From a virus (Duplodnaviria > Caudoviricetes), in the IMG/VR virus record IMGVR_UViG_3300020042_002832, positions 1-25,974 of that record: a stretch of 25,974 nt of DNA; one strand, written 5' to 3'. The notes under the pieces were generated by a model that saw only the letters and a program-made list of their open reading frames with translations, was not told the DNA's origin and made no database searches. Made by a program: the position numbers and the translations under genes. This document shows, piece after piece, positions 8,980 through 13,123 of the stretch; positions within the stretch are counted from its first letter, which is position 1; every line of letters starts with the position of its first letter.

Positions 8980-8988
8980 AATAATAAC

Positions 8989-8996
8989 TATATTTG
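8989..8996 (+). promoter_or_regulatory. Host-type promoter -7 element for the modification/replication operon
   Basis: TATATTTG immediately before the structured leader. Confidence 0.65.
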
Positions 8997-9001
8997 TCAA
9001 A

Positions 9002-9090
9002 GGATTGGCTCGACACCATAAATCCAAAAGGAAATTATTAGCCTTGTATCAAAACAGAAGTCGAGTCCTGTGGAGATATGAGGCTTTTTT
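9002..9090 (+). ncRNA. Structured leader RNA/attenuator with predicted loop-loop pairing
   Basis: Hairpin GGATT/AATCC with loop GGCTCGAC; terminator AGCCTTGTATC/GATATGAGGCT plus T run, with loop GTCGAGTC complementary to the first loop. Confidence 0.6.
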
Positions 9091-9111
9091 ATTTATTAAT
9101 AAATTAACATT

Positions 9112-9375
9112 ATGAACATTTTAGAAAAAGCGAATGAAATTGTAAATCTTCGATCTGAAGAAAAAGAAAGAGAGTACGGACCGTTTACAGAAGGAATGAA
9201 AAGATCTGCACAAATTTTAAGTGGTATGACAGGAAAGGATGTAGACGCTGTATTTATGTATAAAGCTTTAATAGCTTTAAAATTGTCTAGAGAGTCTTAT
9301 AATCATAAAGAAGATAATTTATTGGATGCTATAGCATATTTAGGAAGTTTAAATAATTATTATAATGAAAAATAA
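9112..9375 (+). CDS. DUF6378-like small helical nucleotide-metabolism-associated protein
   Basis: ILEKA.EIV..R...REYG, LKLSRE...HKEDNLLDAIAY motifs. Confidence 0.65.
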   Translation: MNILEKANEIVNLRSEEKEREYGPFTEGMKRSAQILSGMTGKDVDAVFMYKALIALKLSRESYNHKEDNLLDAIAYLGSLNNYYNEK

Positions 9376-10006
9376 ATTTAAAAACGCACAAGAAGCATTT
9401 GGATATTACTATGATTTAATATGTAATAAAGGTTTAAAAAGCAATAATACACTTTCTATTTTTAATTGTGGATTTTACCTAGAAAACCCTCTAGAAAATA
9501 AAATTAATTTAGAATTTAGAAAATGGAATCATGATTATGCTGAATATGAATGGCAGTGGTATTTAATGGGCAACCCTGATGCTTTAGAAATTGCTAAAAG
9601 AGCAGCAATATGGTATAATCACATGGACGAAAATGGATTAGTTAGATCTAATTATGGTTGGCAATGGTTACGAAAAGAGCAATTAAAAAAGGTTATAAAT
9701 AAATTAGCTGAAAATAAGCATACTAGACAAGCTGTAATTTCTATATATGATGGCAAAGAAATAGATACTTATTATAAAGACACTCCGTGCACTTTGTCTA
9801 TTCATTTTCAAATTATAAATGATTTGCTTTGCATGACAGTTAATATGAGATCAAACGATTTATGGTTTGGCTTTTGCAATGATCAATATTGCTTTTCAAA
9901 ATTACAAGAAATAGTATCTAAAGAATTAAATTTAAAAATTGGATGGTACTATCATTTTACATCAAATATGCATTTATATAATAATTTTTTAAATAAAAAC
10001 AAATGA
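9365..10006 (+). CDS. Thymidylate-synthase-fold enzyme, dCMP hydroxymethylase (T4 gp42)-like
   Basis: EWQWY, SNYGW, TRQA, PCT (Cys142), MRSNDLWFGFCND with Asp at Cys+31, H.Y motif; short 213 aa. Confidence 0.8.
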   Translation: MKNKFKNAQEAFGYYYDLICNKGLKSNNTLSIFNCGFYLENPLENKINLEFRKWNHDYAEYEWQWYLMGNPDALEIAKRAAIWYNHMDENGLVRSNYGWQWLRKEQLKKVINKLAENKHTRQAVISIYDGKEIDTYYKDTPCTLSIHFQIINDLLCMTVNMRSNDLWFGFCNDQYCFSKLQEIVSKELNLKIGWYYHFTSNMHLYNNFLNKNK

Positions 10007-10308
10007 AACTAAAAAACGAATTTAATCCTATTAGAGAATGGGCAAATGATAAAGGTATTTTATCAAAAGGTGATATCAAAACCCAGTATGTAAAATTTCA
10101 AGAGGAAGCTGGAGAACTAGCAAAAGCAATTATTAATGATGATAATGATGAGATCATTGATGCAATTGGTGATTGTATAGTTGTGTTAACCTCAATAGCT
10201 TATTTTAACGGTACAAGCATAGAAGATTGTATAAATTCAGCTTATGAAGTAATAGCACAAAGGAATGGAAAAATGATTAATGGAACATTTATAAAAGAAA
10301 CAAAATGA
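10003..10308 (+). CDS. MazG-like all-alpha NTP pyrophosphohydrolase
   Basis: WA..KG, KFQEEAGELA, EIIDAIGD, AYEVI..R.G...NGTFIK. Confidence 0.85.
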   Translation: MKLKNEFNPIREWANDKGILSKGDIKTQYVKFQEEAGELAKAIINDDNDEIIDAIGDCIVVLTSIAYFNGTSIEDCINSAYEVIAQRNGKMINGTFIKETK

Positions 10309-10724
10309 GAACTTATAAATCAAGAATAAAAATACCAATGGAGTTAGAAAATAGCTCAACAGGTTTAATAGGCGAAAAAATATTTGAATTATGGTTTACG
10401 CTTAATTTTCAAGGTGAAAAAATATTTAAACAGTTAGCTGATCGAGACTACCAACAAATTGATTTTGCAGATGAGAAAGGTTTTACTTACCAAGTTAAAG
10501 CAACTAAGCATCGTACATATACATTTAATTGTTGTTTAGATGATCTTAGAGACCATTTAAATAGTGATTACTACGTATTCATTCAAATAAAAGATCATTA
10601 TGCTTATATTGAATCTATTTATTTAAAAACTGATATTTTAGATAAAGCAAGTGTTTCTTTTAAATCTCCTGCTAGTTGTTTTATATGGGCTAATGATTTG
10701 CTACAACAAAAGCTGGAAATATGA
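10305..10724 (+). CDS. PD-(D/E)XK-fold (restriction-like) nuclease
   Basis: GLIGE ... IDF ... YQVKAT motif arrangement. Confidence 0.55.
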   Translation: MRTYKSRIKIPMELENSSTGLIGEKIFELWFTLNFQGEKIFKQLADRDYQQIDFADEKGFTYQVKATKHRTYTFNCCLDDLRDHLNSDYYVFIQIKDHYAYIESIYLKTDILDKASVSFKSPASCFIWANDLLQQKLEI

Positions 10725-11335
10725 GCGGCTGGATTAAAATTCATAGGCAAATTCTTGAATGGGAATGGTACTCAGATACAAATACTTTTCGTGTGTTTTT
10801 ACATTTGCTTTTAAAAGCTAATCATATTGAAAAAAAATATAAAGGAATGGATTTAAAAATTGGTACAATAATAACTTCTAGAGATATTTTAGCTATTGAA
10901 ACAGGTCTTAGTGTAAGGCAAATCAGAACTGCATTAGAAAAGCTAAAAAAGACCAGCGAATTGACCATCAAAACAAGCTCGCAAGGAACTGTAATTGAAG
11001 TAGTTAACTATAAAAAGTATCAACTAACGACCAGCGAGTTGACCAATGAAAGACCAACGAGTGACCAACAAGTGACCAGTAACAAGAAAGAGAATAAAGA
11101 AAAGAATATAAGAAGTATATTTATAGAGCCATCTTTTAATGAAATTCTTGAGTACTGTTCAGAGCGAAAAAATGGTGTTGATGTAAATAAATTCTTAAAC
11201 TTTTATTCAGCTAAGGGCTGGATGGTTGGTAAAAATAAAATGATTGATTGGAAAGCTTGTGTAAGAACATGGGAGAAACCAATTGAAATAAAAGAAGTAA
11301 ACGAACCTAATAAATGGAAAGCGCCATGGAGTTAA
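10721..11335 (+). CDS. Phage replication initiator (lambda O-analogous replisome organiser)
   Basis: GWIKIHRQILEWEW N-terminus, winged HTH (LAIETGLSVRQIRTALEKL), C-terminal FLNFYSAKGW...DWKACVRTW; contains iterons. Confidence 0.8.
   Translation: MSGWIKIHRQILEWEWYSDTNTFRVFLHLLLKANHIEKKYKGMDLKIGTIITSRDILAIETGLSVRQIRTALEKLKKTSELTIKTSSQGTVIEVVNYKKYQLTTSELTNERPTSDQQVTSNKKENKEKNIRSIFIEPSFNEILEYCSERKNGVDVNKFLNFYSAKGWMVGKNKMIDWKACVRTWEKPIEIKEVNEPNKWKAPWS
10951..11115 (+). repeat. Replication origin iterons (GACCA-core repeats) and adjacent A-rich tract
   Basis: GACCA at 10951, 10963, 11029, 11041, 11052, 11063 and 11074, then a purine-rich stretch. Confidence 0.7.
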
Positions 11336-12247: not shown

Positions 12248-13123
12248 ATGAAAACAATAAACAGCATTAGCGGAGGACAAACATCTGCATACATTGCCGC
12301 AAATTATCCTGCAGATTATAATATTTTTGCATTGGTAACAACTGATGACATTAAGTGTAAATATCCAGATGAGAAGCTTAGACAAGTTGTAAGTGATAAA
12401 ATAGGAAAGGAATTTATTGGTACTTTAGAAGAGGACACAATAATTAAAACAATTTTAGATCTAGAACAATTTATAGGAACTAAAATAGATTGGGTAAGTG
12501 GCATTTCTTTTGATGAGCAAGTAAAAATATATAAAAAAAATGGCGAGATAAAAACGCATTTACCATCTGTAATGCGAAGAACTTGCACTATTGAAATGAA
12601 AATACAACCAATTTTTGAGTTTTGGCTTAAAAACATAAAAGAAATAACAGAAACTCGTATTGGTTTTAGAGCAAATGAAACTAGAAGAGCTAACAACATG
12701 ACTGAAAGAGCAGCTTTAACAAATGGAATATTAACATTTAAAACAATCGTTGGTCAATCTAAAAATGGTAATAATAAATGGTTAGATATGCCTTATCAAA
12801 TACCAAGATTTCCTTTGATTGAGGATAACATTTACAAAGATACTATTGTTGAATATTGGAAAGACAAACCTGTTGAATTTGCATACATGAACAATTGCGT
12901 TGGTTGTTTTCATAGAAATCCAATTGTTTTAAAGCATATGTCAGATAGACATCCTAATAAATTTCAATGGTTTATTGATACAGAAATTGAAGGTATGAAA
13001 CATTTTAACGGAAATAATTGGAAACAAGGAATGACATATGAAAAAATAAAAAGCTCATATAAACAGTTTGAACTATTTGACACTGATTTTAACGAATGTG
13101 ATTCAGGATATTGCGGACTATAA
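12248..13123 (+). CDS. PAPS-reductase-like PP-loop protein with cysteine motifs
   Basis: SISGGQTS PP-loop, RTCTIEMKI, IGFRANE..RA, FPLI, NNCVGC, C-terminal CDSGYCGL. Confidence 0.75.
   Translation: MKTINSISGGQTSAYIAANYPADYNIFALVTTDDIKCKYPDEKLRQVVSDKIGKEFIGTLEEDTIIKTILDLEQFIGTKIDWVSGISFDEQVKIYKKNGEIKTHLPSVMRRTCTIEMKIQPIFEFWLKNIKEITETRIGFRANETRRANNMTERAALTNGILTFKTIVGQSKNGNNKWLDMPYQIPRFPLIEDNIYKDTIVEYWKDKPVEFAYMNNCVGCFHRNPIVLKHMSDRHPNKFQWFIDTEIEGMKHFNGNNWKQGMTYEKIKSSYKQFELFDTDFNECDSGYCGL

Follow-up and report, generated by a model that had tools for sequence, protein, structure and literature searches.

The window analysed here, the entire 25,974-nt record IMGVR_UViG_3300020042_002832 of a small tailed phage, carries four consecutive genes at 9112–10720 that form an exact insert at the ATG of the replication initiator gene, between this gene and its leader. 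They encode a DUF6378 protein, an enzyme of the thymidylate synthase (TS) fold, a MazG-type pyrophosphatase and a small nuclease. We put the probability at roughly 0.58 that this cassette is an exchangeable insert that replaces cytosine with 5-hydroxymethylcytosine (5hmC) at the level of the nucleotide pool. In the proposed pathway, MazG would convert dCTP to dCMP, the TS-fold enzyme would convert dCMP to 5hm-dCMP, and DUF6378 would phosphorylate the modified dCMP, with host enzymes completing the phosphorylation and incorporating the modified nucleotide. The nuclease would cleave DNA that retains plain cytosine, thereby returning host DNA to dCMP and possibly shutting out unmodified sister phages, while the modification would protect phage DNA against both host restriction and the phage's own nuclease. 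The cassette and its flanks comprise the following features:

8980..9111, + strand: intergenic leader of the replication operon, part of the backbone (kept in L170, L176, L182 and L177)
9112..9375, + strand: DUF6378 protein, 87 aa (PF19905, E 2.6e-10)
9365..10006, + strand: predicted dCMP 5-hydroxymethylase, 213 aa (PF00303, E 8.5e-22)
10003..10308, + strand: single-domain MazG-type NTP pyrophosphatase, 101 aa (PF03819, 27.5 bits; cut-off 22)
10305..10724, + strand: small PD-(D/E)XK endonuclease, 139 aa (assigned by structure; no match in Pfam or PHROG)
10721..11335, + strand: replication initiator/helicase loader, DnaD/lambda-O-like (PHROG 2514, E 8e-28)

The cassette is an exact and co-conserved insert

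From the start of the cassette into the initiator, successive open reading frames (ORFs) overlap by 11, 4, 4 and 4 nt, and the cassette has a GC content of 0.272 versus 0.362 elsewhere in the window, confirming the four overlapping AT-rich genes of a preliminary description made from the DNA letters alone. Three cassette-less ("empty") sister phages (L170, L176 and L182) match the window up to 9115 and a fourth (L177) up to 9114, with the alignment restarting at 10720. The insert is therefore precisely the four genes, which bears out the earlier idea of a portable module. As to its flanks, a lambda-like initiator does follow, but the leader, described at first as structured, belongs to the backbone and not to the module, since the empty sisters have it too; moreover, it folds no better than shuffled sequences (z −1.28; 15 of 200 shuffles equally good). 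This leader holds a hairpin plus T-run near 9040–9090 and, at 8989, a TAnnTTTG motif, which we take to be a Bacteroidota promoter element and which occurs 34 times on the plus strand of the window.

When loci were fetched by the initiator, 8 of 80 had cassette genes (some loci end early). Among the 17 with an initiator identity of at least 79%, 7 carry the cassette, 9 span the interval between upstream gene and initiator and lack it, and 1 is incomplete. A neighborhood search confirmed that the genes are co-conserved: 80 type-A loci fetched by the TS gene contain MazG in 71 cases, DUF6378 in 57 and the nuclease in 21 (many loci end early), and 80 loci fetched by the nuclease contain TS in 78, MazG in 76 and DUF6378 in 65. 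The two nuclease loci devoid of TS offer just 1.4 and 0.5 kb of upstream sequence. Thus, the nuclease depends on TS, whereas TS also occurs by itself, a pattern that would be predicted for a toxic gene in need of protection. An assignment of the nuclease to the phage backbone was overturned by the same loci.

The TS-fold gene is a predicted dCMP hydroxymethylase

Searches of the PDB with the TS-fold protein returned MilA as the best match (E 3e-18) and T4 gp42 at E 2e-10. Its residues D139, C142, T143, D165 and D173 correspond to positions 143, 146, 147, 169 and 177 of E. coli ThyA and are invariant in 57 of 57 aligned TS homologs; D139, C142, D165 and D173 align with T4 gp42 and MilA, with C142 matching C148 of gp42. 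Asp177 (ThyA numbering, as in the following) is found in all 80 TS loci and in the 120 homologs listed. According to Lee et al. 2026, N177D marks use of dCMP, L143D/E hydroxymethylation and D169N 5-hydroxylation (PMC13326640), and Yang et al. 2021 report that positions 177 and 147 discriminate best between contigs found by experiment to be modified and those that are unmodified (PMC8670742). With Asp at 143, 169 and 177 and Thr at 147, the window gene agrees with a dCMP hydroxymethylase at every diagnostic position published. Synthesis of 5hm-dCMP by the encoded enzyme is, judging from these residues, highly probable, which narrows the C5-modifying role proposed earlier to a predicted hydroxymethylation of dCMP.

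Other activities of this fold fit less well. A canonical ThyA needs Asn177 and His147, where the window has D173 and T143, and a 5-hydroxy-dCMP synthase of the RB69 gp48 type requires D169N, whereas D165 is kept. A CMP hydroxymethylase of the MilA type was rejected because the window and gp42 read RSND and MilA reads RAND; the Ala replacing Ser167 in MilA presumably underlies its ribonucleotide preference. At the level of the whole family, at least 7,980 of the 8,000 clusters scored were TS homologs, many of them more distant TS genes.

TS types are exchanged in one slot, and DUF6378 follows

Fetching loci by the nuclease revealed other TS genes in the same slot. Counts by type refer to 157 loci with TS, 124 of them unique. 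The unique genes comprise 88 of type A, the type of the window, in all of which the equivalent of D143 is an Asp within a DTPC motif (D139 in the window); 28 of type B (LPPC in 15, ALPC in 13); 4 of type C (RLPC); and 4 of type D (QLPC). D169 and D177 are present in 124 of 124. With D177 and a non-acidic residue 143 (Leu in 15, Ala in 13), type B is a predicted dCMP methylase. Type C (RSCDARRHFRND; L090:829-2855, L092, L116 and L117) is always accompanied by an amidotransferase resembling asparagine synthase and by a DUF6378 variant of its own. Type D, which has Asp177 as well, lies directly 5' of the nuclease (L115:1033-2084, L120, L122 and L123).

Comparison of close relatives revealed which genes change along with TS. 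Locus L085 resembles the window in its flanking replication proteins (89–98% identity), MazG (97%) and nuclease (91%), yet carries a type-B TS only 26% identical to that of the window and a DUF6378 protein at 56–60%. Likewise, L118 and L121 share 98% in MazG and 99% in the nuclease versus 68% in DUF6378. Mean identities within and between TS types are 0.705 and 0.566 for DUF6378, 0.651 and 0.659 for MazG, and 0.592 and 0.577 for the nuclease. On FastTree phylogenies, whose rows exclude type D and fused MazG, the TS-type label changes 3 times along the DUF6378 tree and 11 times along the MazG tree of 81 loci, and 3, 12 and 14 times along the DUF6378, MazG and nuclease trees of 60 loci, compared with means of 22.6–26.4 changes over 60 label shuffles. 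DUF6378 alone follows the TS type, whereas MazG and the nuclease cross types; this tracking holds even though MazG is the direct neighbor of TS and DUF6378 often lies 3 kb away. Types A and B are split by ten columns in the central part of DUF6378, such as P24, G28 and Y63, and K57, R60, D72 and G23 are invariant across 106 diverse homologs.

What might such a partner do? When related TS enzymes were expressed in E. coli on their own, incorporation stayed at trace level (PMC13326640), so a monophosphate kinase is needed, and T4 gp42 plus gp1 were reported to be enough for 5hmC incorporation by the host polymerase (bioRxiv 2024.12.05.627091). P-loop motifs in seven relatives are confined to helicase and terminase, and Pfam returned no kinase or polymerase family in 61 unlabelled ORFs of these genomes (all unlabelled ORFs of G453, G458 and G460, and 11 of 16, 6 of 18, 1 of 17 and 1 of 8 in the other four). 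Neither a polymerase nor a P-loop dNMP kinase was found in the window or in the fully scanned G453, G458 and G460 (ATG-start ORFs of at least 90 aa). By elimination, and because it co-varies with the TS type, DUF6378 is the best kinase candidate. We therefore read it as a base-specific TS partner, most likely a modified-dCMP kinase; taken on its own, the kinase assignment is an even call.

A rather less likely account keeps the 5hmC module and makes DUF6378 a base-specific sanitising hydrolase, for instance of deaminated 5hm-dUTP, or a TS-binding partner, with host kinases phosphorylating the modified nucleotide and substitution remaining partial. It likewise predicts co-variation with TS type, and would suit the trace incorporation seen without a phage kinase (PMC13326640), the site avoidance of G458 described below and the fusion of DUF6378 to an Asp-type TS (P0450). 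DUF6378 also shows a weak likeness (probability 5.7%) to a second family of small helical phage proteins, and MazG 1vmg appears, among noise, at Z 5.2 in its fold search. However, the MazG motif EExxE is absent from DUF6378, and the fusions among 65 long homologs, which join it to dUTPase (2), MazG/PRA-PH (4), UDG, HAD or Asp-type TS, make it unlikely to duplicate the first two of these activities. A toxic nuclease would, in addition, demand dense modification and hence an efficient kinase.

The nuclease is a candidate for a modification-blocked enzyme

The AlphaFold2 (AF2) model of the nuclease (pLDDT 90) has a PD-(D/E)XK core fold with conserved catalytic residues, in line with the initial assignment. 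Its closest structural matches are NhoI and Eco15I (Z 9.8; root-mean-square deviation (rmsd) 3.2–3.4 over 106–107 aligned residues), followed by I-Ssp6803I (Z 9.1), DpnI (7.9), Hjc (7.1) and PvuII (6.9). A QxK motif (QVK) contributes to an active site of E24, D53, Q63 and K65, of which D53 and Q63 are found in 106 of 106 homologs and K65 in 105. Identity to the group of BisI-family enzymes, PvuII and I-Ssp6803I is 16–17%, and the nuclease profile found no match among PDB sequences, NhoI and Eco15I included. The family is a small one, of 160 clusters.

Nucleases 91–99% identical adjoin predicted 5hmC and predicted 5-methylcytosine (5mC) enzymes alike. The nuclease is most simply read as a canonical-type enzyme that a C5 substitution would block, and we lean slightly toward such a block. 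In a very unlikely alternative, the nuclease is a BisI-like, modification-dependent enzyme directed against methylated host or competitor DNA. Besides the ranking of NhoI, Eco15I and DpnI, this would account for the shared QxK motif, since BisI enzymes have it and cut 5mC- and 5hmC-containing DNA (PMC11347163), and 47 of 106 homologs touch DUF6998 (E up to 0.1; best E 8e-4). Yet a specificity of this kind would hit the phage itself, as 5mC or 5hmC DNA would be its own in the window and in the predicted 5mC sisters. Furthermore, the link from DUF6998 to Eco15I is weak (E 0.84), and among canonical enzymes PvuII comes nearest to the fold (PMC11347163).

The rank of the homing endonuclease I-Ssp6803I, level with the top matches, favors another unlikely scenario, in which the nuclease, indifferent to modification, would spread the cassette by cutting sister phages at their empty leader–initiator junction. 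The exact insertion at the initiator ATG and the initiator homolog adjoining the nuclease in 51 of 80 loci would suit it. The nuclease occurs in other contexts as well (in 12 of 80 loci it precedes terminase), yet keeps TS in 78 of 80 and at every locus with enough upstream sequence, which speaks against homing.

MazG is constant beside changing TS genes

The window MazG (PHROG 1992, E 7e-32; PDB 1vmg, E 6e-5) retains the metal-binding motif EExxE…D, as EEAGE at 34–38 and DAIGD. MazG proteins 97–98% identical stand beside differing TS types. Given that MazG is retained whichever of the dCMP-acting TS types accompanies it, its substrate is most likely dCTP, an assignment we make with reasonable confidence.

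A restriction-site signature, and evidence pulling the other way

Site frequencies were computed for the window plus 31 fetched records (of 40 handles), 21 genomes with and 11 without the cassette. As four palindromes had been picked after seeing the 4-mer table, the full sets of palindromes, 12 that contain C and 4 of A and T only, were computed as well. Median observed/expected ratios in cassette and empty genomes were 0.48 versus 0.00 for GATC (p 5e-4), 0.54 versus 0.00 for CATG (p 0.004) and 0.74 versus 0.62 for all 12 C-containing palindromes (p 0.014). In the closest clade, GATC stands at 0.86 in the window, 0.88 in G453 and 0.93 in G454, as against 0–0.30 in seven empty sisters. A DNA methyltransferase, TET-associated glycosyltransferase (TAGT) or GNAT gene is present in 9 of 11 empty records. 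Type-D genomes keep their GATC avoidance (0.12 in G488). The GATC signature supports cytosine modification, short of proof.

That GATC and CATG, the sites with the strongest relaxation, include cytosine speaks against the least probable of the alternatives, namely that modified dCMP is an intermediate deaminated to 5hm-dUMP or dTMP, leaving 5-hydroxymethyluracil (5hmU) or ordinary bases in the DNA. Phage deaminases that convert 5m-dCTP to dTTP do occur beside Asp177 TS genes (bioRxiv 2024.12.05.627091), a dCMP deaminase lies between MazG and a type-A TS at L014:5604-5999 (the sole such case among the loci seen), and the commonest payload, described below, resembles thymidine-hypermodification clusters. 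On the other hand, a deaminase homolog is absent from the window, the 80 nuclease loci and the 31 fetched genomes, and Asp177 TS genes mark contigs experimentally found to be cytosine-modified (PMC8670742).

Several observations weigh against cytosine replacement by this cassette, or against parts of the proposed pathway. AT-only palindromes also differ slightly between the groups (0.95 versus 0.91, p 0.07), GGCC and CCGG are equal, and the genomes are related, were chosen by us and may have different hosts. Six of the 21 cassette genomes avoid GATC (0.06–0.18), among them the complete genome G458, which has the minimal cassette of the window; such exceptions could stem from a recently gained cassette or from substitution that is only partial. 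Type-D loci pair TS and nuclease without MazG or DUF6378, L107, the single exception to type tracking, has a TS of type A paired with a DUF6378 protein of type B, and DUF6378 is found in mycobacteriophages and Dhillonviruses as well. The co-variation of DUF6378 with TS equally fits a base-specific hydrolase or binding partner. Its five-helix AF2 model (pLDDT 92) gave no PDB match at E 0.001 or at Z 8 (best Z 7.3, rmsd 5.0), and structure matches in a viral library and the ESM Atlas were DUF6378 proteins only. The kinship with T7 gp1.7 that the preliminary description had raised found no support: hhalign assigned it a probability of 0.1–0.2% (shallow profiles; shuffled columns scored as high), and no gp1.7 match appeared among PDB sequences. 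The substrate of MazG is not readable from its sequence, and the structures nearest to the nuclease cut modified rather than plain cytosine DNA (PMC11347163).

Relatives carry payload genes inside the cassette

Between DUF6378 and TS, many relatives of the window carry additional genes, which we tallied in 62 unique type-A loci. The commonest payload consists of an SGNH/GDSL-like protein, a protein with an invariant D-x-E-x-x-x-C-D motif of the aGPT-Pplase kind and a pyridoxal phosphate (PLP) enzyme; it is found in 32 loci and, with the first two genes fused, in 2 more (L006:3361-5996, L007, L012, L020 and 30 further loci). L006 and L007 are near-sisters of the window. Other type-A loci carry an S-adenosylmethionine (SAM) methyltransferase (10), a 350-aa gene without assigned family (4) or an inositol-phosphate synthase set with PF18723 (1), and 13 of the 62, the window included, have none of these payloads.

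By analogy, the three-gene payload is a candidate for an undescribed cytosine hypermodification, and the payloads look like cytosine counterparts of thymidine hypermodification. They need a hydroxyl acceptor, which fits 5hmC, and no such payload was seen with a type-B TS. The PLP enzyme matches M6 gp52 at E 0.001, and profile comparisons with gp51 and gp55 of the same phage came out negative; homology of a payload protein to the amino acid:DNA transferase gp51 was thus dropped, leaving a likeness of motif alone. The cluster, viewed earlier as two paralogs, proved to comprise two families that a single fusion links.

ORF233c of Aeromonas phage 44RR2.8t, a phage with gp42, matches the SGNH-like protein in its N-terminus. 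There (ORF233c-234c; L083:3408-7388), the SGNH-like N-terminus is part of a 795-aa protein beside a sodium:solute symporter. At L058:421-4750, an SGNH-like gene accompanies inositol-1-phosphate synthase, an FkbM methyltransferase and PF18723, which suggests an inositol-type adduct on hmC. Payloads and the exchangeable TS gene are two features beyond the preliminary description, the interpretation of which is, as a whole, partly supported.

Genome setting

Apart from the cassette, the window encodes terminase, portal, amidase, a lambda-like initiator, helicase, NinG, Erf, an exonuclease and SSB. Complete relatives measure 28.7–33.7 kb; hence a few kilobases (about 3–5 kb) are probably absent from the record. 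No polymerase family matched the window ORFs scanned (21 ORFs, 18 of them rescanned, and 9 further), in agreement with the earlier impression of a phage that has no visible polymerase. Sequence comparisons make a Bacteroidota host likely: Flavobacterium sp. is the source listed for one homolog of the nuclease, and the nearest cultured phages by TS gene are Bacteroides phages (48–49% identity). A TS search of prokaryote genomes yielded two loci, one of them weak, and no prophage pointing to a host; PADLOC, run on eight proteins, gave no matches. CpG is strongly depleted in the window (observed/expected 0.32; 0.20–0.24 in structural genes), with close relatives at 0.6–1.7, and this depletion is not specific to the nuclease.

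A second variable slot lies 3' of the helicase and holds DNA-modifying genes in sister phages. Its occupant in the window, a gene resembling PAPS reductase (12248–13123; PHROG 424), may itself be a DNA-modification gene. In two cassette-less sisters (L165:7833-9048 and L178:1721-2957), a TAGT gene (PF20691) stands behind a 131–132-aa gene without assigned family; in other sisters, the interval between helicase and NinG is occupied by C5 or N6/N4 methyltransferases or by a GNAT/ATPase gene.

Relation to known systems

Replacement of cytosine at the pool level and Asp177 TS genes in viromes are already known. The steps of the T4 hmC pathway (gp42, gp56, gp1, DenA/DenB and gp43) provide the closest template, the window enzyme sharing residues equivalent to D145, C148 and D179 of gp42. 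Both systems would drain dCTP, modify dCMP and cut plain DNA (PMC8056088). Unlike in T4, the module is a 1.6-kb insert in a 30-kb phage, with MazG for gp56, DUF6378 for gp1, a BisI/PvuII-fold nuclease for the T4 nucleases and an exchangeable TS; no polymerase, P-loop kinase or glucosyltransferase was found for the cassette phages.

Type-B sisters resemble Xp12-type dCMP methylases and the Asp177 TS genes of MetaGPA in their D177 and non-acidic 143. The MetaGPA contigs have PRA-PH/MazG-like neighbors but, unlike the window, often a family A polymerase and a deaminase (bioRxiv 2024.12.05.627091). The portions of the MetaGPA text at hand (PMC8670742; bioRxiv 2024.12.05.627091) mention neither DUF6378, nor MazG by name, nor an exchange of TS types in one slot. 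The literature searched gave no account of a DUF6378 function or of the exchangeable slot, although the MetaGPA supplements may list this TS clade as tested.

Two cultured phages have related TS enzymes that keep Asp177, Bacteroides phage BF486P2 (49% identity) and Enterococcus phage VPE25 (35%), with carbamoyltransferase and beta-glucosyltransferase as hypermodifying neighbors. Beside its TS gene, BF486P2 carries a P-loop (AAA_28) gene, and VPE25 has both a polymerase and a P-loop gene, whereas the constant TS neighbor in the polymerase-less group is DUF6378. In BF486P2 (L081:6641-12669), two TS homologs, carbamoyltransferase, the P-loop gene and a dUTPase lie together, and this phage would be well suited to testing the TS clade.

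With the BisI family (NhoI, Eco15I), PvuII and I-Ssp6803I, the nuclease shares a small stand-alone PD-(D/E)XK fold and QxK; it differs from them by its low identity and lack of a profile match, and genomic logic suggests a specificity opposite to that of BisI. M6/ViI thymidine-hypermodification clusters (aGPT-Pplase, PLP decarboxylase; PMC8989533) likewise include a PLP enzyme, and D-I-E-H-T-L-C-E-F of M6 gp55 resembles D-x-E-x-x-x-C-D-F of the payload. The payload differs in being tied to a dCMP-type TS and in having an SGNH-like protein where a 5hmU kinase would be, and it is absent from the window.

Taken to its full extent, the proposal is a doubtful one: a phage-borne, plug-and-play restriction-modification system in a very common group of aquatic phages, with wholesale cytosine replacement through the host polymerase, a new 87-residue family of non-P-loop, base-specific kinases (DUF6378) swapped together with TS, and a slot that yields 5mC, 5hmC and undescribed derivatives via SGNH plus aGPT-Pplase-like plus PLP, inositol and amidotransferase payloads. 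Base replacement has usually been described with viral polymerases and kinases (PMC13326640). A 1.6-kb kit moving between 30-kb phages devoid of a polymerase would be the smallest of its sort, and common. DUF6378 is a widespread phage family, mentioned three times in the literature searched, in which natural matched 5hmC/5mC pairs predict specificity, the nuclease is a small enzyme that may sense C5 modification, and the payloads offer several candidate new cytosine hypermodifications.

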